A stretch of 64,000 bases of DNA, taken from positions 1,321,693 through 1,385,692 of the forward strand of contig OZ245758.1 in assembly GCA_965227405.1 (NCBI GenBank), in the 5' to 3' direction. This DNA is from Polyangiales bacterium. Its GTDB lineage: Bacteria; Myxococcota_A; Polyangia; Polyangiales; Houyiibacteriaceae. This document shows, in pieces, positions 24,282 through 64,000 of the stretch (its first letter is position 1; the number at the start of each line of letters is the position of its first letter). Under the pieces are notes generated by a model that was not told the origin of the DNA, made no database searches, and saw nothing but the letters and a program-made list of their open reading frames with translations. The translations under genes and the position numbers were made by a program.

Positions 24282-26366
24282 CTAAATCGGCGATGGAGGC
24301 GGTGCGACAGGATCGGTGGGTGTCGGCGGTGCCGGGGGCGGAGTGGCGCTACCGGAGGACAACCCCAAGTCGAAGTTCCGCCCCGCCAACACGGATGCCC
24401 AAGCGCTCGGACCGACCAGGTTAAACGTCCCGCCGTTCTCCTCGAGCGTCGTCGACGTCAACGCCTCGCCAGCACTCTCGACAATACAATTCGGGGTCAC
24501 AATCCCGATTGCATCCCCACCATTCGCCAGCATCAACACACACCCACCGCCCGAGCAATCACGCGGAACATCAAGATCAAAGTTCAAGCTTCCGATCTCC
24601 ACCTCACGTGTTGTGCCTTCGTTCGCGGTGATCCGAATCTCGTCGGCACGTCCGCCTTGCAAGAGCGTGCCGCCAAAACGCGCACCCATCACAGAACCCT
24701 CAGCGTCGTAAAACGCAATTCCCATGCGCTCGTTTGCCCGAAACTCGCTCCCGTCCACATCCACGTTCGCACCGACCGACGCTTCAATCCCACCACGACC
24801 GGCTCCCTCGAATCGTCCCCCGGTCACACTCACAGCATGCGGGCCGCTGATCTGAAAACCCACGTTGTCGCTACCATCGACCACGACCTCGGTCGCAGTG
24901 CTCGCGGTTGCGTGTGCATCACCGCTCAGAACGACACCACGAACCGACGCGTTTTCGACAATGGTATTGGTCAACGCAAACCGTGACGCGTCGTGCGCAA
25001 ACACGCCGACCTCCACATTCTGAAGCATCGCATCCGAGACCGTCACAACGCCTCCCGACAACGCTGCAACGCCGACGCCAACGTTGGCCATGCTCACATC
25101 ACCAAGGGTCAGCTCCGACCCGCGCACGCTAAACGCCGTCTCAACATCACTCGCTTCAACCGTCCCGGCAAGACCCGCCATACCGGCCTCCGCGACAAGC
25201 ACCCCAAGCGCTCCACCACTTAACTGATACGTCCCATCGGTCGATGTCAGTGTTCCTTCGCGTACATACGCATGCGTCGCCATTGTGCTCGTGGTTTCGC
25301 TCCGAAGTGCTCCAGCAAGGGTCACGCTGCCCGTATCCACGAACAAACCGGTCCCCTCTCCAAGCAGCTCAATGCTCACTGCGTCGCCCAACGTGACGTC
25401 CCCCGATGCGGCAACCAGACCAAATCCTGCGATGGCTGCAAAGTCGGTCCGCGCGACATCAACGCTGGCATTGTTGTCGACGATCAACCCCGCAACCGAC
25501 GGTCCTTGAAACAGAACACCGTCCAATGACGCCACACCGCCCCGAACTCGATTGTGTCCAAAGAACGCTCCATCGTCGGTTTGACCTCGCAGCTCCAGAT
25601 CAGGCCCCAAGGTCGCAGCAACCGCATCCTCTACCCACAGCCCCGCATTCCCGGCCAACACAAGCGTGCTCGTCATGACAAGAGTGCCACCACGGGAAAG
25701 CACTCCGTAGTTTCCACCGCTTCCCATAATGGTTGTGTTGGATTCAGTACGCAGCGTTGACCCCGGCGTCGCTACGACCGCCGCACGCTGAAGCGCAGCC
25801 GGTGCCGTCGCGACCGCACCGGTGCGCAACGTGGAGCCGCGCAACGTAGCTTGTGCACTCCCCTCGAGAACCACACTCGCCTGCACGTCCTGAAACTCGA
25901 TGTTCTCCAGCTCCACGATGACATCGCGCGCATAAACACCAACGGCACAGCCTTCGATGGTCACGTCTCGAATGGTGAGGCGCGCAGCCACGTTCACGGC
26001 CACCGGCGCGTCCTCCCGCACCGCGTCATCGAACGCATCGAGAATCGACACGCTCGCACATCCCAGCGATCCGCTCAGCAAGGTCTGTCCGGCTCCCGCA
26101 CCTTCAATGTTCACAGCCCGGTCGAAACTGTCCGGTAGCGTGAACGCGCCCACGCCCACACACACGCGGTCCCCACTCGCGCCAAGCGCCTCTTCCAACG
26201 TGCCAAAGGGCACGGCTTCCGTCCCGTTGCCCCCACTCGCACCACTTTCGACGTAGATGCAGTCAGACGGGCCAACGTCTGTTCCACCATCCATCGGCGG
26301 CATCCCGTCGTCGTCACCGCAGGCGAGTGCAAGCGCACAAAGAAAGACAAGAAGGAGGCGAATCAT
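24282..26366 (-). CDS. Secreted lipoprotein with right-handed parallel beta-helix repeats
   Basis: Start MIRLLLVFLCALALACGDDDG (lipobox LALAC). Long G/A/V/T-rich beta-helix-like repeats. C-terminal Pro-rich tail PPPAPPTPTDPVAPPPSP. Confidence 0.75.
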   Translation of the reverse strand: MIRLLLVFLCALALACGDDDGMPPMDGGTDVGPSDCIYVESGASGGNGTEAVPFGTLEEALGASGDRVCVGVGAFTLPDSFDRAVNIEGAGAGQTLLSGSLGCASVSILDAFDDAVREDAPVAVNVAARLTIRDVTIEGCAVGVYARDVIVELENIEFQDVQASVVLEGSAQATLRGSTLRTGAVATAPAALQRAAVVATPGSTLRTESNTTIMGSGGNYGVLSRGGTLVMTSTLVLAGNAGLWVEDAVAATLGPDLELRGQTDDGAFFGHNRVRGGVASLDGVLFQGPSVAGLIVDNNASVDVARTDFAAIAGFGLVAASGDVTLGDAVSIELLGEGTGLFVDTGSVTLAGALRSETTSTMATHAYVREGTLTSTDGTYQLSGGALGVLVAEAGMAGLAGTVEASDVETAFSVRGSELTLGDVSMANVGVGVAALSGGVVTVSDAMLQNVEVGVFAHDASRFALTNTIVENASVRGVVLSGDAHATASTATEVVVDGSDNVGFQISGPHAVSVTGGRFEGAGRGGIEASVGANVDVDGSEFRANERMGIAFYDAEGSVMGARFGGTLLQGGRADEIRITANEGTTREVEIGSLNFDLDVPRDCSGGGCVLMLANGGDAIGIVTPNCIVESAGEALTSTTLEENGGTFNLVGPSAWASVLAGRNFDLGLSSGSATPPPAPPTPTDPVAPPPSPI

Positions 26367-26369
26367 GGT

Positions 26370-27797
26370 TTGCTGAGCATACCCGTGCAGGAGGGCAAGC
26401 ACATCGACTGGCGCGACTGGCTTGCTGCATTCGCGGTGAGCATGGCGTGGGTGGCGTTGATTCGCCCCGGAGAACTCGATCTCCCGTATTGGTGGGACGA
26501 GGCCGACGTTTACGTCCCCGGATCCAAATGGGTGGCAGAACATGGTCTCACAGTCACACCGGGAATCTTTCCGGACGACTACAGCCGGGGTCACCCGATC
26601 TTGCTCTATTGGTTGGCTGGAGTCGCGTTCAACGCGTTGGGCCCAGGTCCTGTGGTCGGTCATCTCGTCGTGCTGCCGTTCACTGTGGCTGCGTTGGCGT
26701 TCACCTATTTGCTGGGTGCGCACGTGTTTGGACGACGTGCCGGGCTGGCCGCCGCAATCGCTCTCGGCACGACCCCGCTCTTCATGTCGATCGGCAACAT
26801 GCTCTTGCCGGAACTACCGATTACAGCGCTCGCAGTGGCATCGCTCTACGCGTACGCACGCAAGCGCACACTGTGGGTGATCGCGCTTGGTTGCGCGGCG
26901 GTTTGGATCAAAGAAACGGGAGTGTTCTGTGTTGCTGCAATCAGCGGGGCGGAGCTGTGGATGGCGTTGCGCACCCGAGAACGTCGACGTTGGATTCACG
27001 GACTGCTCCTAGGCACACCGGTGCTCGCGCTTGTTGGCTTCTTCGTCTGGCAAAAGGTCCACGCGGGCTACTACGTGTTCCCCCACCACGCGAACCTCTT
27101 TGCGGATCGCCCACTGGACTGGAGCAACCTCGCAACGGTCTGGCCCTCACTCTTGTTTTGGCACGGCCGCTGGGTTCTGGTGCTCGGTGCACTCGCCGCG
27201 CTCGCGTTCGGAAGAAGCGCATGGCCAACACCTGACAACCAACCACGCGTCGTCGTCGCCATGGTGCTGTTGGTGCTCGCGAACTTCGTGTTCTTCAGCA
27301 AGATGTTCTGGCTCGAACGCTACGCACTCCCGGCACATCCAGGAATCTTGGTGCTGCTTTCCGGAGCGTTGCTGTGGGGCGTCGGCAAGCTCCCGCGAGC
27401 ACGACGCACCGCACGCTTTCTTCCACTCTTGTGTGCAGCCGCCATTGGTTTGGGGAGCATGCGCACGGCAACGGCTCCCGATGAAGAAGAACATACGTTT
27501 GCATATGCGGATGCAATCGCATCACACCTGCAAGCATTCGAACATGTTCACGGCACGGTGTTGACTCCGTGGCCCATGACGATCGAGTTGCGCAATCCCT
27601 ACCTCGGCTACGTCGATTCTCCCTTCGAAGCGATTCACCCACGCAGTCACAACGGCGAACGCGTGGACTGCGTGCTCTTTGCGGAACACTCCTGGCGCGC
27701 GGATGAGTTGCGCCAAGAAGCACAGCGACAAGGCATGCATCGCGTAGACGTGTTCCGTGTTGGCGTCGCGCAAGGTCTGGAGCTGTGGTCGCGCTAA
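26370..27797 (+). CDS. GT-C family membrane glycosyltransferase (ArnT/PMT-like, GT39/83-type)
   Basis: About 11 TM helices with first periplasmic loop PYWWDEADVYVPGSKWVAEHG, an ArnT/PMT-like DE-containing loop. Strong SD aaggagg before a TTG start. Confidence 0.75.
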   Translation: MLSIPVQEGKHIDWRDWLAAFAVSMAWVALIRPGELDLPYWWDEADVYVPGSKWVAEHGLTVTPGIFPDDYSRGHPILLYWLAGVAFNALGPGPVVGHLVVLPFTVAALAFTYLLGAHVFGRRAGLAAAIALGTTPLFMSIGNMLLPELPITALAVASLYAYARKRTLWVIALGCAAVWIKETGVFCVAAISGAELWMALRTRERRRWIHGLLLGTPVLALVGFFVWQKVHAGYYVFPHHANLFADRPLDWSNLATVWPSLLFWHGRWVLVLGALAALAFGRSAWPTPDNQPRVVVAMVLLVLANFVFFSKMFWLERYALPAHPGILVLLSGALLWGVGKLPRARRTARFLPLLCAAAIGLGSMRTATAPDEEEHTFAYADAIASHLQAFEHVHGTVLTPWPMTIELRNPYLGYVDSPFEAIHPRSHNGERVDCVLFAEHSWRADELRQEAQRQGMHRVDVFRVGVAQGLELWSR

Positions 27798-52861: not shown

Positions 52862-54628
52862 ATGGAGCTCCAGCCCGGGCAGCGGCTGGGGGGGTTCGAG
52901 ATCGTCCAACACGTGAAGTCGGGTGGGATGGCCTCGCTCTACCTGGCCCGGCGACAAGGTGCCGCTGGTTTCAGCCGCCCGGTGGCGATCAAAATCGTTC
53001 ACCAGGAGCTTGCCAGGGACCCGAAATTTATCCGGATGTTCCTGGATGAAGCGCGACTCGCGGTTCTGATCCAACACCCGAACGTTGTTCAGGTCGAAGA
53101 GCTGCTCGAAGTCGGCGGCACGTACATGATGGTCATGGAGTACGTCCATGGAACCAGCCTCTTTGACGTGCTTCGGAAGCTGGCCCGACAAGGTCGTCGT
53201 CTTTCACCGGAACTCGCCGTGTGGATTGCCACTCGTGCTGCCGACGGGTTGCACGCCGCCCATGAACTCCGTTCGCCCGACGGTCGTCTGCTCGAAGTTG
53301 TCCACCGCGACATCAGCCCGCAAAACATTTTGCTGAGCTATTCCGGACACGTGAAGGTCATTGACTTTGGTATCGCTAAGTCGCAGCAACGAACCGACCT
53401 CACGCGCACCGGTGTGATTCGCGGAAAGCTCGGCTACATGAGTCCGGAGCAGGCCAACGCTGCGCCCGTGGATCGACGCACGGATGTCTACGCGTTGGGC
53501 ATCGTGTTGTGGGAGATGTTGACCTCGCGTCGCTTGTTCAAAGGACAAAGCGAGGTCGAACTGCTGGACAAGGTGCGCAACCCTCGTGTCGCACGACCGA
53601 GCTTGTACGGACACGTGCCTCCTGCGCTCGAGAACGTCGTGATGGATGCTCTCACGCCGCCGGTCGACATGCGCCTCAAGTCCGCGCACGAGATGCGCAA
53701 CAAGCTTCTGAAGGCGCTTCCCGAGTCGGGTCAGCTGCACTCCTCCACCCTCGCTGGGCTTTTGAGCACGGTGATGTCCGACACGATGGATCAAGGTCCG
53801 TTGAGTTGGGAGGAAGCGGGTCTGACCGGTGAACCGGCCGAGCCCTCGCGTAGTTTTCTCGCTGCGCACACGGTTCATGCGAGCGCGCCAGATTTCTCTT
53901 CGACCGAAATGGACGAAGAAGAACTTGCGACCGTCGTTAGTCAGGAAGTCCCGTTCATGACGCCTGGGATGGACCACACGGTGCAGTCCGGTCCCTATCC
54001 CGTGAGTCCGATGAGTGCGCCGATGCCGGGTCCGCGAAGTGTTCCTATGCCGGGCCCACCCATGCCGAGTGGCAGCATGCCCATGCCACCGCCTCCGCCT
54101 CGACCTTCGGGACCTTCGCCCGTCGCAAGTGGTCCTTCACCGATTTCGGCGGCGGCAGCGCTGCCGATGCCCACGCCGCAACCGATGGAACCGCCGTCGC
54201 ACACCCAACCGCGTCGACTGGTCCAACGACCCGCACAACAGTCGAACTCGTTTGCGCAGTTCCAAGCGCCACCGCCGACGATGGGAACCGGTACGGATTC
54301 GGGACAGCTCGACTTTGAAGTCGACCCGCGATCGATCGTGTACTCGGATCAACCTGCGCGTGGTGAGCGAAAAGAGAGCAAGGCTGCGGGTTGCATCGTC
54401 CAGCTCATCTCGATGACCGTGCTGGTGCTCGCACTGGCGATTGCGGTTGTGCTCGCTTACCGCGCAGGGCTCTTTCACGAACTCTTTGGTGATCCGGTGC
54501 AGCCGATTCAAGCACCCATCGATCCGAACGCACCCGTCGATCCCAATGCTGCTGCCGACCCGAATGCGGCGATGGATCCAAACGCGATCGATCCGAACGC
54601 AGCAGCTCCAGAGCCCGTGGGCGACTAA
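52862..54628 (+). CDS. Membrane Ser/Thr protein kinase with Pro-rich linker, single TM and DPNAx-repeat periplasmic tail
   Basis: LYLARRQG, AIKIV, HRDISPQNILL, DFGIAK, SPEQ. Pro-rich PMPGPRSVPMPGPPMPSGSMPMPPPPPRP. TM LISMTVLVLALAIAVVLAY. Tail IDPNAPVDPNAAADPNAAMDPNAIDPNAAAPEP. Confidence 0.85.
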   Translation: MELQPGQRLGGFEIVQHVKSGGMASLYLARRQGAAGFSRPVAIKIVHQELARDPKFIRMFLDEARLAVLIQHPNVVQVEELLEVGGTYMMVMEYVHGTSLFDVLRKLARQGRRLSPELAVWIATRAADGLHAAHELRSPDGRLLEVVHRDISPQNILLSYSGHVKVIDFGIAKSQQRTDLTRTGVIRGKLGYMSPEQANAAPVDRRTDVYALGIVLWEMLTSRRLFKGQSEVELLDKVRNPRVARPSLYGHVPPALENVVMDALTPPVDMRLKSAHEMRNKLLKALPESGQLHSSTLAGLLSTVMSDTMDQGPLSWEEAGLTGEPAEPSRSFLAAHTVHASAPDFSSTEMDEEELATVVSQEVPFMTPGMDHTVQSGPYPVSPMSAPMPGPRSVPMPGPPMPSGSMPMPPPPPRPSGPSPVASGPSPISAAAALPMPTPQPMEPPSHTQPRRLVQRPAQQSNSFAQFQAPPPTMGTGTDSGQLDFEVDPRSIVYSDQPARGERKESKAAGCIVQLISMTVLVLALAIAVVLAYRAGLFHELFGDPVQPIQAPIDPNAPVDPNAAADPNAAMDPNAIDPNAAAPEPVGD

Positions 54629-54657
54629 CTCGTCCTGCAAACGGGTAGTTTGAACAA

Positions 54658-54787
54658 AGGGTTCAGATTGGGGACAGGGTCAGATCTGACCCGAACTCCT
54701 CCGAAAACGACCGACTTTCCCCACGATCACTAATTGTATGGTCACATAGTTCAGTTCAGATCTGACCCTGTCCCCAAACTGAACCCC
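54658..54787. repeat. Inverted-repeat element: two 33-35-bp arms (about 30/32 identical) around a 16-bp perfect palindrome GGGTCAGATCTGACCC, with a 61-bp spacer
   Basis: Arm A 54658-54692 gggttcagattggggacagggtcagatctgaccc. Arm B 54754-54787 is its reverse complement with two mismatches. It sits between convergent gene 3' ends. Confidence 0.6.
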
Positions 54788-54802
54788 CATCTGGGAGGTC
54801 AA

Positions 54803-55966
54803 TCAAGCGGGGCGCAGAAGCACCAGACTCTCGCGCCGTTCACGCTTGCCCGTGTAATCCGGGCGGGTCTGACTCGCGCTCGCCACCCATCGAAGCCCCG
54901 CATCCGCAGCTAAGCGGCCGAGTTGCTTCGACGCTTCGATCCGCCGATCGCCAATCTGTCCGTCACCGACCAAGAAGATCACCGACGCGTCTTCGGTCAA
55001 CACGCTCGCGATCGACTTGAGCATCTCGCGAACCTGTTGGTCCCACCGCTTCACGTCTTTGTTCCGCCGAAAGTCGCGACGCGCACCGATCTCAAACCGT
55101 CGCATCCGGGCGGGATCGATCCCCAACCAGGGATACCGCCGCATGTGATGATCGACATAGTTGTAGGTGCCTCCGTAGGGCGGCGAACTGAGCACCAGCC
55201 CTGCCTTCACATCTTTGGGCAACCGCTTCTTCAGCTCACGCGCGTCGCCTTCGATCACGCGTGGTCGCGCGGAACGACGCGCAAGCGGTTCGAGCTCTGC
55301 CCACCGACTCAGCAACTCCATGCCTTTGTCGAGAAAGAGCTCCGTCGGAAGCCCCTTACGAATCCGCTTGTCCTGCATCTGCATGCTGGTGTCGGAGCGC
55401 TGCTTGCTCACCTTCACGATGATCGAGCTCAGCAGCATTTCGAACGCGCGCCGATCCTCGACATCTTCGATCGCTTTGATCTCAGCACGCAGCCCAGCGA
55501 GCTCTTTGAGAACGTTGGGCGCGTACCACTGAATCTCGGTTCGCGGCAGTGGTGCACGCGCATCGACGCGTTCGCGTACTCGCTCTTCGGAGCGAACAGC
55601 AATCCCTTCCAAGGCCACTCGAAAACGCGTGCGGGACGCTTCGTTTCGAACATCGCTTTTGACCCGAGCAAGGCGAACACCCAAAGGGCTCAAATCCACG
55701 CCGAGCGCACGACGTCCGGCAATACGCGCTTCGACGAGCACCGTCCCCGACCCGCAAAAGGGATCGACCACCGGTTCACCCTTGTACAGCTCCAACACTT
55801 TGCGCGCGACACGCGGATGCATGCGCGCGGGATACGAATGAAATCCATGCGTGAGGTCGTCGGGAGCTTCGGAACTGCACGCGATGGCTTCGGCAAGCTT
55901 CGCCGATTCTTCGGCGAGCCCATGTTGCTCGACCGCTCCACCCTGGTTGGAGAGTGCCTTCTTCAT
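54803..55966 (-). CDS. Site-specific DNA amino-methyltransferase (N6A/N4C), circularly permuted motif order
   Basis: HGFHSYPARMHPRVARKVLELYKGEPVVDPFCGSGTVLVEARIAGRRALGVDL (motif X plus motif I, like the C-terminus of beta-class PF01555 enzymes) comes first. Motif IV LVLSSPPYGGTYNYVDHH comes about 190 aa later. Confidence 0.75.
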   Translation of the reverse strand: MKKALSNQGGAVEQHGLAEESAKLAEAIACSSEAPDDLTHGFHSYPARMHPRVARKVLELYKGEPVVDPFCGSGTVLVEARIAGRRALGVDLSPLGVRLARVKSDVRNEASRTRFRVALEGIAVRSEERVRERVDARAPLPRTEIQWYAPNVLKELAGLRAEIKAIEDVEDRRAFEMLLSSIIVKVSKQRSDTSMQMQDKRIRKGLPTELFLDKGMELLSRWAELEPLARRSARPRVIEGDARELKKRLPKDVKAGLVLSSPPYGGTYNYVDHHMRRYPWLGIDPARMRRFEIGARRDFRRNKDVKRWDQQVREMLKSIASVLTEDASVIFLVGDGQIGDRRIEASKQLGRLAADAGLRWVASASQTRPDYTGKRERRESLVLLRPA

Positions 55967-57299: not shown

Positions 57300-57474
57300 G
57301 AGGGATCTTTAGCAATTTGCTGGGAAACAGGAAATTTTATTGTCCGGAGTTGGGCTCGATGCGGTTCGAGCTAGGTGCGGTCCGAATGTGCACTTTGGTG
57401 CGAAAAACGATGTGATTTCGAGAGCTCGGATCTTGGAGGTGTGGGAATTTATCTACGCGTCCCCGAAATTCACT

Positions 57475-59725: not shown

Positions 59726-59886
59726 CGATGATGACCCCGACCAAAGACCCGAAGAACGTACTTGCTTGGCGCATGCGCCGCGTGAAGGCCGCCAACGGCG
59801 TGACCGTTCCCAAGAAAGAGAAGCTGCGCGTGATGCAAGCTCTCCGGAACGCGTCGGCGATTCGTCAGGGTAAGAAGAACGACTAA
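59726..59886 (+). CDS. Small basic protein (53 aa), hypothetical
   Basis: SD caggag 8 nt before ATGATG. MMTPTKDPKNVLAWRMRRVKAANGVTVPKKEKLRVMQALRNASAIRQGKKND; Lys-rich composition is unusual for this GC. Confidence 0.35.
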
Positions 59887-61016
59887 GGACACGCAGCGAC
59901 CCACCCCACTGTGATTTGGGTCAGGTCGTTGCCCTCCATAAACGCCGACGCGTCCAACGCTGTCCACGTGTCGTCTCCGGAGTCGGCGCGATAGAACTCA
60001 TCGCCGTTTCGGTTGAAACCGATCAACGCACCGCTGGGCATCGCCACGCTGCGCCGGATCACACCACGCTCAAGTCCGCTCGGAACCATCTCCCAGGTGC
60101 GTCCGTCGGAACTGCGGTACACATCCGTTCGGTTGAACGCTTGAAACTCGGTGCCGGTCCACACCACGCTTCCCGAGATTCCAGATCCGACGTTGTGGTT
60201 GGTGACGGTCGCTCCGTCGTCGGAACGACACACAACACCACCGGATCCAACCACCACAAAGGTGTCGCCGTTCGACGCCACACCACCGCTGCGCCCGAGT
60301 CCGTCGGTGCAGGATCCATCGGCAAGATCGGCCTGAACCCAGGTTTCTCCGTCTGAGCTCAGCTCGAAGCGTCCCTTGTCTCCAAGCACGACGAAGCGAC
60401 CGTCCGCGACGTCGACAAAATCCACGCGTCGAACATTTGCTCCGCGTCCGACCTCGGAAAGCTGACTCCAACTCAGTCCATCTTCGGAGGCGTGCACCCG
60501 ACGCCCGGCCACAGCAATGAAGCGGCCGTTGCCGTACGCGACATCCGAGAAGCCCGTGGTCTCCTCGTGGACTTGCTCCCAGTTCACCGCGTCGTCGCTC
60601 GCGCGAAGGTGTCCGGGTGCACCCCATCCCAGCGCTGCGACAAAGCGTCCGGCACCCCACGCCAATCCTTTGGACGAAAGTGGGCTGTGGTCATCGTCGC
60701 TCACCTCATCAAACCGATCGGCGACCCACGTCCGACCGTCATCGCAGCTCACAAGAGTGCGCGCGCCTTGCCCGAGCGCGACCGCCACCGCGACTCCCGG
60801 AACCTCGGCATCCGTTCCGACATCCGGAGTTTCTGTCGCGTCGAGTGAACTCGAATCGATCGTCGGCACGTCATCGAACGCCCCGTCCATCGACGCATCC
60901 ATCGGAGGAGCATCGATCCCCGCGTCGTCGCCCATCATGGCGTCGTCGTCGCCGCAGGCCACGAGCGTCAATGCACTCAAAAGCGTCGACGCAGCCAGCG
61001 GCGCGAGAAGCTTCAT
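59883..61016 (-). CDS. BNR/Asp-box repeat (sialidase-like beta-propeller) lipoprotein
   Basis: Lipobox LSALTLVACGDD. Seven or more Asp-box-like units (SCDDGRTW, SEDGLSWS, SSDGETWV, RSDDGATV, SSDGRTWE, DSGDDTWT, ASDDAVNW). ATGA overlap with the DUF1552 gene. Confidence 0.7.
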   Translation of the reverse strand: MKLLAPLAASTLLSALTLVACGDDDAMMGDDAGIDAPPMDASMDGAFDDVPTIDSSSLDATETPDVGTDAEVPGVAVAVALGQGARTLVSCDDGRTWVADRFDEVSDDDHSPLSSKGLAWGAGRFVAALGWGAPGHLRASDDAVNWEQVHEETTGFSDVAYGNGRFIAVAGRRVHASEDGLSWSQLSEVGRGANVRRVDFVDVADGRFVVLGDKGRFELSSDGETWVQADLADGSCTDGLGRSGGVASNGDTFVVVGSGGVVCRSDDGATVTNHNVGSGISGSVVWTGTEFQAFNRTDVYRSSDGRTWEMVPSGLERGVIRRSVAMPSGALIGFNRNGDEFYRADSGDDTWTALDASAFMEGNDLTQITVGWVAACP

Positions 61017-62371
61017 CAGAAGAGCTCGTCGAGCGTTCGATCCAAGGGGATCGTTCCGCCGTCCACATCGGTCACTGACGCCTTGCCGATCTGCGTCGCG
61101 TCCGAACCCGTCGCTTGAGCCACCGTCAGCAAGAGCTCGTTGTGCCCACGCCCGACCAGTCCGTGCCGCGCTTCAAGCGGGTTTTGCCGGTTCATCGGGT
61201 AGTTCACGTAGCGTCCTTTGCGCAGCGGTCCGCCAGCCACAACCGCCATCATGTCCCACAACGTGTGGTCGCCGGTCGCCAGCTCGGTGAGCCAGACCAC
61301 CGTGGTGTGATCGAGCAAGGTTCCATCGCCCTCGGGTACCGAATCGAGTTGATCCAGGAAGAACGCAAAGTCGGCCGCATGCGCCGCGTAGTAGTCGCCC
61401 ATGCCTTCACGCTTCGACACATCGCCACCGTGATGTGCGAAGTCCTGGTGCACGTCTGCGCCCGGATGACCAAAGTCGGAACCCGGTAGCTGCCCTTCGC
61501 TGATGGTCACCACGCGCGTGAGGTCACAGGACATGGCCAAGGTCGCGAGCTGCATCAAGTCACGTACGCGATCCCCGCTACTCGGTTCAGTCGCTTCACC
61601 GCAGCTGATCGAACCGAGCTCCGTGATCCGCGCTTCGATGTCTCGGATCATCGTGGCATGACGCTCCAGTTTGTCGCGGTCGTCGCGGCTCAACCGTGGC
61701 GCGATCGAACTGAACTCGGCCGCTGCAAAGTCGAGTACCGAACCGCGATGGCCGCGAATCAGCGACTCTTGCGTCGGCTCGGGCGGCTCCATCCCGCCTG
61801 CGGGAAACAAGCGGTCAAACGCTTGCGACACGCTCCGCTCGGGCTCGATGCGCTCACCCGGGGCGGACCAGCTCGGCGAAACCTGCGCGCCACGCGTGCT
61901 GTACTCGAGTGAACGAAAGCGACCGGGAACCGCAATCGAATCGGCGACGATCTGATCCAACGAACGACCTGCCGAGCTCTGTGCACCAAAGCGACCGGCA
62001 CCCGAAAAGATGCTTCCAGCCGCCGCACCGTGACGCTCGCGACCGTGAAGGCGCTCGTCTTCCATGTGCGAGAGCTCGCTCAGACCCTGCACAACCAAGA
62101 GTTGATCGCGATGGTCGTAGAGCGGCGCCAGTGCACGACTAAACTGATCGCGGTTGAGCGCGGTCAGGTCGTACTCGAACATGCTCATCGGGTCGCGCCC
62201 CATCGGCATCTGCCACTGCTCACCAGGAGCACCGTGCGCGGTGTAGTAGAGAACCAGACGCGACGGGCTGGCCGTGGGCTGGGCGTTCACGCTCGAGCCA
62301 CGAAGCGAGGGCAACATCGTCCCAAGCCCGGTGAGTCCAAGCGCCTGAAGCAATCGCCGCCGACCAATCAT
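61016..62371 (-). CDS. DUF1552 family protein with Tat signal (Planctomycete-type two-gene pair, partner B)
   Basis: Start MIGRRRLLQALGLTGLGT (twin-arginine). Body matches the DUF1552 family. ATGA overlap with the upstream DUF1592 gene. Confidence 0.75.
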   Translation of the reverse strand: MIGRRRLLQALGLTGLGTMLPSLRGSSVNAQPTASPSRLVLYYTAHGAPGEQWQMPMGRDPMSMFEYDLTALNRDQFSRALAPLYDHRDQLLVVQGLSELSHMEDERLHGRERHGAAAGSIFSGAGRFGAQSSAGRSLDQIVADSIAVPGRFRSLEYSTRGAQVSPSWSAPGERIEPERSVSQAFDRLFPAGGMEPPEPTQESLIRGHRGSVLDFAAAEFSSIAPRLSRDDRDKLERHATMIRDIEARITELGSISCGEATEPSSGDRVRDLMQLATLAMSCDLTRVVTISEGQLPGSDFGHPGADVHQDFAHHGGDVSKREGMGDYYAAHAADFAFFLDQLDSVPEGDGTLLDHTTVVWLTELATGDHTLWDMMAVVAGGPLRKGRYVNYPMNRQNPLEARHGLVGRGHNELLLTVAQATGSDATQIGKASVTDVDGGTIPLDRTLDELF

Positions 62372-64000
62372 CGTCCTTCTCCTTCTGCAAGCGCACTCTC
62401 TGCCAGCAACACAAACTCGGGCGCCGTCACCAACGACACCATCATCTCGCGCACATCTCCGTTGGCTTCGCGCACCTGCTGATGCAGCGCACACAAGCGA
62501 CAGTTGTCTTCGGGCGTTGCGACACGACCCTCCGCAAACTCGAACCAGTGCATGGTCATGCACTCGCGAACTTGGTCACTCTCGGCAAGACGGTTCGAAA
62601 GCTCCACCGCATCATCGACCGGACCGTCGACATCGGTGCCCGAGATCCACCCGGTGCTGTCGACCGGAAGTCCGCGTTCCTCGGTGCGAAACGCACCCGT
62701 TGCGTCGTACGCCTCAAACGCAAACCCAAATCCGTCGATCGCTTCGTGGCAGCTCTGGCACTGTGCCGGCGCAGTGCGGTCTTCGAAAAGTTCGCGGTTG
62801 GTCGCGTTTTCTCCATCGCGCAACTCCACGGGTGACGTGTCCGCATCGTCGGGCGGTGGAAGCAACGTTGCGCACGCCACCCGCTCGAGCAGGTACGCAC
62901 CGCGCAAAGGAGGCGAGCCGTTTTCCGGCTTCGCGCGTGTCGCGAGAAAGTTTGCGCGCGTCAGTAGACCCGCTCGCTCATTGGGGTCGAGCTCGACTTG
63001 GTTCCACCCCGAGCCGCCGCTCGCCACACCGTACAGACTCGCCAGTTCGTCGTTCACGAACGAGACGTTACTGCTCAGAAGGGCGTTGAAGTTGCCCTCG
63101 CCTTCGAATACCACGTGCTCGACAAACCGGTCGGACTCCTCGCGAATCGCACCGCGCAGTGCCTCGCTCCAGGCCGGGAACAAGTCGCTGTCCTTGTTCT
63201 GCTCAAGCACCTCGTCCAACTCGAACCACTGGCGATGAAAGTTCACGACCAGTTCTCGCGCACGCGGATCGGCCAGCATGCGACGCGCCTGGATCTCGCG
63301 CTCCTCGGGCGTACGCAGAGCGTCGGCCTCGGCCGCAGCGAACAGCTCTTCATCGGGCATCGAACCCCAAAGGAAGTACGAAAGCCGAGTTGCGATCTCG
63401 TAGCTTCCCAGCGCGACCGTGCCTTCCGGGGCCTCAAGTGCGCGGTCGCCCAACTCGATGCGATACAGAAACTGCGGCGACTGCAAGAGCGCTTGAACCA
63501 GCAACTGGAACGCCCCCTCGAGCTCCACGTCGGCGCGAACCGCATCGAAGAGACCCATGTAACGGGCAGCTTCGTCGTCGCTCATCGGACGGCGAAAGAT
63601 GTCGCGCCCCAAGCTCCGAAGCGATTGCTCGATACACGCGCGTTCATTGCTGCTGGGATCACAATCGAGGTGAGCGTTCATGTCCGCGGCCACCTCCGTC
63701 GCCAACTCGATCGCGATGAACTCGTACTGCTCGACGCGAAGCGGGTCAGGCCCAAGCAGCGACGAGTCGTTTTCGAACCCGTGACGTGTGCTGTCTTCGA
63801 GCATCGTCAGGGTTCGGGGCGCCAACATCGGCAGAACGTCGCGCACGGTCTTGTCGAACTCCGAGTTGCTCAGCCGGCGCAGCCGTTGGGTACCGAGCGC
63901 GATGGGTGCGTCCGTGCAGATGTCGCAGGCAAGCGTAACGGGTCCCTCCGGACCCGGACCGTCGGGTCCATCCGGAGAATCGTGCTCTCCCGCAGGATGA
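62368..64000 (-). CDS. DUF1592/DUF1588 (PSD1-like) family protein, 5' end beyond window
   Basis: The reading frame is open to the window edge. CxxC-containing CQSCHEAIDGFGFAFEAYDATG and RLSYFLWGSMPDEELF, typical of the DUF1592/DUF1588/DUF1595 proteins paired with DUF1552. Confidence 0.75.
   Translation of the reverse strand, partial: HPAGEHDSPDGPDGPGPEGPVTLACDICTDAPIALGTQRLRRLSNSEFDKTVRDVLPMLAPRTLTMLEDSTRHGFENDSSLLGPDPLRVEQYEFIAIELATEVAADMNAHLDCDPSSNERACIEQSLRSLGRDIFRRPMSDDEAARYMGLFDAVRADVELEGAFQLLVQALLQSPQFLYRIELGDRALEAPEGTVALGSYEIATRLSYFLWGSMPDEELFAAAEADALRTPEEREIQARRMLADPRARELVVNFHRQWFELDEVLEQNKDSDLFPAWSEALRGAIREESDRFVEHVVFEGEGNFNALLSSNVSFVNDELASLYGVASGGSGWNQVELDPNERAGLLTRANFLATRAKPENGSPPLRGAYLLERVACATLLPPPDDADTSPVELRDGENATNRELFEDRTAPAQCQSCHEAIDGFGFAFEAYDATGAFRTEERGLPVDSTGWISGTDVDGPVDDAVELSNRLAESDQVRECMTMHWFEFAEGRVATPEDNCRLCALHQQVREANGDVREMMVSLVTAPEFVLLAESALAEGEGR

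Follow-up and report, generated by a model that had tools for sequence, protein, structure and literature searches.

The window, that is, the whole 64 kb stretch of DNA analyzed here, contains a long inverted repeat lodged between two genes, and the question that this locus raises is what kind of sequence this is and how it came to lie there. A preliminary description had placed it between convergent genes, and the gene coordinates bear this out: the element is situated between the stop codon of a Ser/Thr protein kinase gene, on the plus strand, and that of a gene for a SAM-dependent methyltransferase-like protein, on the minus strand (Table 1). The latter is the last gene of a co-directional cluster, which comprises the genes for a Cys/Met PLP enzyme, a 194-aa protein, an MTS-type methyltransferase and the methyltransferase-like protein; other genes in the neighborhood encode PSD/PSCyt domains, a trait pointing to Planctomycetota.

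Table 1. Coordinates of the inverted-repeat element, its internal motifs and its surroundings in the window.
Feature	Position	Strand	Sequence	Remarks
Ser/Thr protein kinase gene	52862-54628	+		Stop to the left of the element; low-complexity DPNA-type C-terminal tail
Left flank	54629-54658			30 nt, from the kinase stop to the left arm; not present in relatives; source of the minus-strand UUUGUUC directly after the stem
Left arm	54659-54697		GGGTTCAGATTGGGGACAGGGTCAGATCTGACCCGAACT	39 nt, from the inverted-repeat search
GGGGWSAS-type motif	54670-54677	+	GGGGACAG	Mirror copy at 54768-54775 on the minus strand
Perfect 16-bp palindrome	54677-54692		GGGTCAGATCTGACCC	In the left arm
Spacer (hairpin loop)	54698-54747			50 nt, non-complementary; ~50 % GC versus ~60 % in the flanks
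Right arm	54748-54786		AGTTCAGTTCAGATCTGACCCTGTCCCCAAACTGAACCC	39 nt, from the inverted-repeat search
Degenerate copy of the palindrome	54753-54768		AGTTCAGATCTGACCC	In the right arm; 14/16; core TCAGATCTGA at 54756-54765
Right flank	54787-54802			16 nt, from the right arm to the methyltransferase stop; absent from relatives; small minus-strand hairpin CTCCCAGATGGGGG
SAM-dependent methyltransferase-like gene	54803-55966	-		Partial N6_N4_Mtase / UPF0020 matches
Candidate transposase-flanking repeat sequence of the element			GGGTTCAGNTTGGGGACAGGGTCAGATCTGA	

A repeat search delimited an inverted repeat of 128 bp overall, whose arms are complementary at 36 of 39 positions (92 %) and which surpasses all other inverted repeats of the window in length and quality. 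Two matches to a 31-nt arm sequence, with up to three mismatches, occur in the window only at the element, and in none of 100 shuffles. The repeat search, the shuffles and the folding results given below all show that the inverted repeat noticed in the preliminary description is real, although its geometry had to be corrected, from arms of ~33 nt with a spacer of 61 nt to arms of 39 nt with a spacer of 50 nt. The perfect 16-bp palindrome that had been assigned to the left arm was found there, bordered by GGGGACA and GAACT, and the right arm keeps 14 of its 16 positions; the two palindromes also constitute a direct repeat (family D1), with a centre-to-centre distance of 76 bp. Both arms are, in this way, partly self-complementary. 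By itself, the left-arm palindrome folds weakly (-5.4 kcal/mol as single-stranded DNA, z -1.2).

RNA folding of both strands of the element, proposed in the preliminary description as a check, gave very stable structures, of -69.8 kcal/mol for the plus strand (z -5.8) and -76.6 kcal/mol for the minus strand (z -5.5), and folding of the two strands as single-stranded DNA yielded z-scores of -8.6 and -9.4. After correction for GC content, the element ranks first among 4,259 folding windows as an outlier on both strands (-5.0 and -6.0 sd); in raw folding energy, some very GC-rich coding windows equal it. No comparable hairpins were found at other gene ends within the window. The element has no coding capacity, with all six frames interrupted and a longest open stretch of ~40 codons.

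The junction was compared with those of five distinct metagenomic lineages, whose methyltransferase-like protein is 75-79 % identical to that of the window; one further, exact match is on an NCBI contig. The gene order is kept in all five relatives, in which the convergent stops are separated by -4 (L004/L005), +1 (L006), 0 (L007), +4 (L013/L014) and -4 nt (L015), versus 174 nt, with the element inside, in the window. The C-terminus of the methyltransferase-like protein is unchanged with respect to the relatives, and the kinase ends in ...PEPVGD* in the window versus ...A(A/T)ME* in three relatives. Since the genes abut or overlap in the five relatives and the methyltransferase end is unchanged, the whole 174 nt are extra DNA in the window lineage. 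The 16 nt beside the methyltransferase stop may derive from the terminal codons of the ancestral kinase gene (...ME*), although their similarity is insufficient to count as evidence. The tail of the kinase gene (54510-54610) is itself made up of DPNA-type repeats (direct-repeat families D2-D5) that vary in length and sequence among relatives, as exemplified by EPEPEP in L015 and L004.

Among themselves, the relatives share 80-89 % identity, which places the window lineage outside all five; as an outgroup, it does not allow parsimony alone to tell an insertion from a loss. The arms are still complementary at 36 of 39 positions despite a divergence of the lineages to ~77 % protein identity, at which neutral sites are saturated, and the repeat is thus either young or maintained. 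Complementarity of this degree at saturated divergence would favor a recent gain.

With moderate confidence, we interpret the element, at the junction of two convergent genes, as an inserted palindrome, small and devoid of coding capacity, that can be grouped with MITEs or REP dimers (REPIN-like); features of this kind are familiar and common. According to this interpretation, a palindromic insertion would have entered the junction in the window lineage, and its arms, each with a short palindrome of its own, could fold arm by arm or as a single 39-bp stem. A MITE-like mobile remnant was among the options of the preliminary description and is the best supported of them, by the five empty sites and by breaks of short-read contigs within the arms, although neither a second copy nor a target-site duplication was found.

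As expected for a MITE, the element is small (under ~300 bp) and non-coding, is bounded by terminal inverted repeats, and is present or absent at orthologous sites (-4 to +4 nt in the five relatives versus 174 nt), with the polarity of this difference left unfixed by the outgroup position of the window lineage. Bacterial MITEs include the Correia elements of Neisseria, ERIC/IRU of enterobacteria and RUP of Streptococcus pneumoniae, whose transcripts adopt hairpin structures with effects on termination and on the stability of mRNA. The element resembles them in its size (100-160 bp), lack of coding capacity, long terminal inverted repeats, location in intergenic regions or at gene ends, and presence or absence between related genomes. 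Unlike these MITEs, it shows no sequence similarity in the searched collections and is known here from one locus and, unlike Correia elements, which duplicate TA, it has no target-site duplication. Indeed, no direct repeat of at least 2 nt flanks it, the left side reading ...GAACAAA and the right side CCATCTG... (boundary at 54786) or GGTCAAT... (boundary at 54796), both boundaries being provisional; this argues against a classical DDE-type MITE. Additionally, neither an autonomous element whose terminal repeats match the arms nor a Y1/HUH transposase gene flanked by copies of the arms is present in the window. The lack of a target-site duplication, together with the self-complementary arms, may fit a single-strand route through hairpin-recognizing HUH/Y1 enzymes (RAYT- or TIRYT-type) somewhat better than a MITE mobilized by a DDE transposase. 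REP dimers, or REPINs, are reportedly tied to RAYT transposases.

In REP and TIR dimers, two inverted units with a spacer of 20-100 bp fold either one by one or together into a single stem-loop (Di Nocera et al., 2013, PMC3733652). The element shares this organization, having two inverted units with a spacer within that range, a self-complementary tract in each unit and the capacity to form a single long stem-loop, and it is likewise extragenic, downstream of coding regions, devoid of a target-site duplication and endowed with a GGGGWSAS-type motif in its arms. It differs from REPs in that its 39-nt units are at the long end of the range and in that it lacks a GTAG or CGTC tag beside the palindrome, the nearest GTAG (54645-54648) lying outside the repeat and 29 nt from the palindrome. 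Since this tag is a defining one, we did not file the element as a REP. The GGGGWSAS motif has been described in the TIRs that flank TIRYT tyrosine-transposase genes, and REP families have been reported from three planctomycetes (PMC3733652). The element carries this motif of the TIRYT "TIRtrons" in both arms, although the match was made post hoc, with a chance of ~1 % for GGGGWSAS to fall in an arm; the motif has 12 matches in the window versus 16.6 expected, for a background of ~1e-4 per strand position. A more specific version of our interpretation, which we regard as rather doubtful, is that the element is one of an undescribed planctomycete family of "TIR dimers", mobilized by a HUH tyrosine transposase of the TIRYT/RAYT type, with GGGGWSAS arms and the palindrome as the recognized hairpin, which would insert at the 3′ ends of genes without target duplication and would have been active at a time recent enough for close lineages to differ in it.

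Several other known structures were considered and rejected: an integron attC site (no RYYYAAC/GTTRRRY ends and no cassette context), parS or dif sites (no resemblance), the 38-bp repeats of Tn3-type elements (only the GGG start in common and no 5-bp duplication) and a retron (no reverse transcriptase nearby).

If the element is mobile, further copies would be expected, and we searched for them in diverse collections. There is no second copy in the window, where the closest other match to GGGTCAGATCTGACCC has two mismatches, and blastn-short did not identify copies in ~100 kb of the relatives' loci. The inner 20-mer common to both arms had no match in 185,579 GTDB representative genomes, a set that does not include the source genome and that, therefore, says little on the number of copies within it; this 20-mer did not match JGI metagenomes or IMG/VR either. 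The pattern of the outer arms produced only two solo matches in metagenomes, at chance level, both without a partner arm and with a different GC content, and blastn against plasmids and phages produced none. A concatenated six-frame query against 5.8 billion proteins did not reveal a miscalled ORF at E <= 10, which is a weak result because short-read contigs break at the element.

These breaks are the single indication that matching sequences may exist. We examined Logan contigs, assembled with k=31, from two samples (SRR23272279 and SRR23272290) that contain a ~99.9 % identical strain. Contig L003 stops at 54688, exactly 30 nt (k-1) into the left arm from the first base of the repeat, and contigs L001 and L002 share an end at 54767, within the right arm. 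In a simulation with k=31, every 31- and 30-mer of the window was unique, and exact identity between the arms was limited to 22 nt, so the hairpin alone is unable to branch a k=31 graph. Since the branch does not stem from the hairpin, matching sequence elsewhere in those samples is implied, which hints at further copies in the two samples. The simplest reading is that they contain another sequence starting at 54659, which would make 54659-54796 the repeated unit, although the breaks may have arisen instead from strain variants or from sequencing errors caused by the hairpin. At its other end, ~25978, the kinase-carrying contig stops inside an ORF on the minus strand (24282-26723), where the coding sequence is ordinary and is not repeated in the window, which indicates that contig ends in these samples are not always at recognizable repeats. 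A flip-flop inversion between the arms was rejected as the cause of the breaks, because it predicts ends at 54690/54755 versus the observed 54688/54767. In the same assemblies, contig L016 runs through the point where L017 ends.

If the element is one of many copies, it would add a small non-autonomous repeat family to planctomycete genomes, for which few descriptions of such elements exist, and would provide a marker of use in typing strains and in recognizing assembly breaks in such large genomes. It would also be an example of convergent genes, otherwise overlapping, that are set apart by an insertion; it has no bearing on a major open question.

A possible alternative, which we hold as tentative, is that the element is a single-copy palindromic spacer made locally, for instance if replication or repair involved template switching or an inverted duplication, and kept as an insulator, in the form of a bidirectional terminator or an RNA 3′-end hairpin, between convergent units that overlap in the relatives. 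This is consistent with the failure of every search to find another copy, with the lack of a target-site duplication and with the position of the element, exactly where the convergent genes would otherwise collide. Other indels of ~100 nt between these lineages are also in line with it. A second spacer, between the genes for the Cys/Met PLP enzyme and the 194-aa protein (57300-57474), spans 175 nt in the window versus 57-92 nt in the relatives; the extra ~90 nt contain no inverted repeat and have an ordinary fold (z -0.25), showing that indels of this size arise here without mobile elements. Opposed to a local origin are the contig breaks in the arms in two samples, which a hairpin alone could not produce at k=31 and one of which is exactly k-1 nt from the edge of the repeat. 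A block just upstream of the start of the 194-aa gene (~57300-57350, ...ACAATAAAATTTCCTGT...GCAAATTGCTAAA...) is strongly conserved in all relatives and is probably a promoter or 5′ leader.

A GC-rich stem right after two stop codons is reminiscent of intrinsic terminators, and UUUGUUC, with its U-rich UUUGUU, comes directly after the stem on the minus strand. On the plus strand, however, the stem is followed by CCCAUCUGGG, without a U-tract; the geometry, with a stem of 39 bp and a loop of 50 nt, departs widely from the usual stem of 5-15 bp and loop of 3-8 nt, and a terminator scan did not call the element. The bidirectional terminator suggested in the preliminary description is, therefore, at most half right, being favored by the minus-strand UUUGUU and contradicted by the plus strand and the atypical loop. 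The absence of comparable hairpins at the other gene ends of the window also indicates that the genome does not use such structures routinely, which counts against a local spacer kept for this purpose. The presence of the element would mean, as a side effect, that both convergent transcripts end in or traverse a very stable hairpin: the stem and UUUGUU probably serve as a terminator or 3′-end protector on the methyltransferase strand, and the hairpin is probably a 3′ stabilizer or an RNase III target on the kinase strand.

It is improbable that the element is a protein-binding or recombination site, in which two 16-bp palindromes with core TCAGATCTGA, 76 bp apart, would be recognized by a dimeric regulator, a partition protein or a site-specific recombinase. 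One perfect and one 14/16 palindrome do occur in direct register at that distance, and clusters of three palindromes centered on TCAGATCTGA, with the look of operators or iterons, exist in three phage contigs from IMG/VR. Nevertheless, complementarity over 39 nt extends well past the palindromes and is unneeded in a pair of binding sites, the location between two 3′ ends offers no promoter to regulate, the relatives have the same genes and lack the element, and the palindrome does not recur in the window, in which its only other match has two mismatches. The phage contigs (L010:803-923, L011:10903-11120 and L012:334-438) were found with the pattern TCAGATCTGA-N50-80-TCAGATCTGA. Each of them holds three closely spaced, longer palindromes around TCAGATCTGA, such as TGCTCAGATCTGAGCA; these clusters look like operator or iteron arrays and have no homology to the window element beyond the core.

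Even less probable is that the element encodes a structured small RNA. The very stable fold would be compatible with it, although the fact that it is equally stable on both strands points to a symmetry of the DNA and not to an RNA gene, no promoter-like site was found at the element, and the element is not conserved in the relatives. The structured RNA contemplated in the preliminary description likewise received no backing from Rfam, which had no matches at gathering score in the whole 64 kb window; the best match of the element was to MIR1882, a plant miRNA precursor, with 40.5 bits against a gathering cut-off of 107 bits, and is a generic long-hairpin look-alike. The window also lacks tRNA genes.

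Finally, the idea that the AGATCT/GATC core makes the element a recognition or regulatory site for the adjacent methyltransferase, prompted by the proximity of the gene and the site-like hexamer, is scarcely credible, given that the five relatives carry the methyltransferase gene without the element, that AGATCT occurs 11 times in the 64 kb window versus ~9 expected from composition, a frequency that shows neither avoidance nor enrichment, that there is no restriction enzyme gene beside the methyltransferase-like gene, and that the family matches of the protein are weak and partial. These matches comprise a partial one to N6_N4_Mtase (43 bits, residues 45-94), and the best partial matches in NCBIfam, all far under cut-off, are to tRNA/rRNA m2G methyltransferases. 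Judging from these similarities, the protein is not clearly a DNA methyltransferase, and a functional tie between the element and this neighbor, as raised in the preliminary description, is not supported. Beyond the five close relatives, the nearest homologs of the methyltransferase-like protein are from Myxococcota, with hundreds of matches at 50-62 % identity that are variously annotated as DNA methyltransferase or RsmD-like; their distribution across phyla is patchy.

The window lineage also shows a lineage-specific difference far larger than the hairpin. The gene for a 336-aa kinase has the response-regulator and LNT genes as direct neighbors in relative L004. In the window lineage, these genes are separated from it by a block of ~11.6 kb (from ~59730 to 64000 and beyond; L016:1014-12639), which contains the genes for a 335-aa protein, an HXXSHH protein, a PSD/PSCyt protein, a 248-aa protein, a kinase, a 490-aa protein, an RCC1-repeat protein, a MIP channel and a 360-aa protein.
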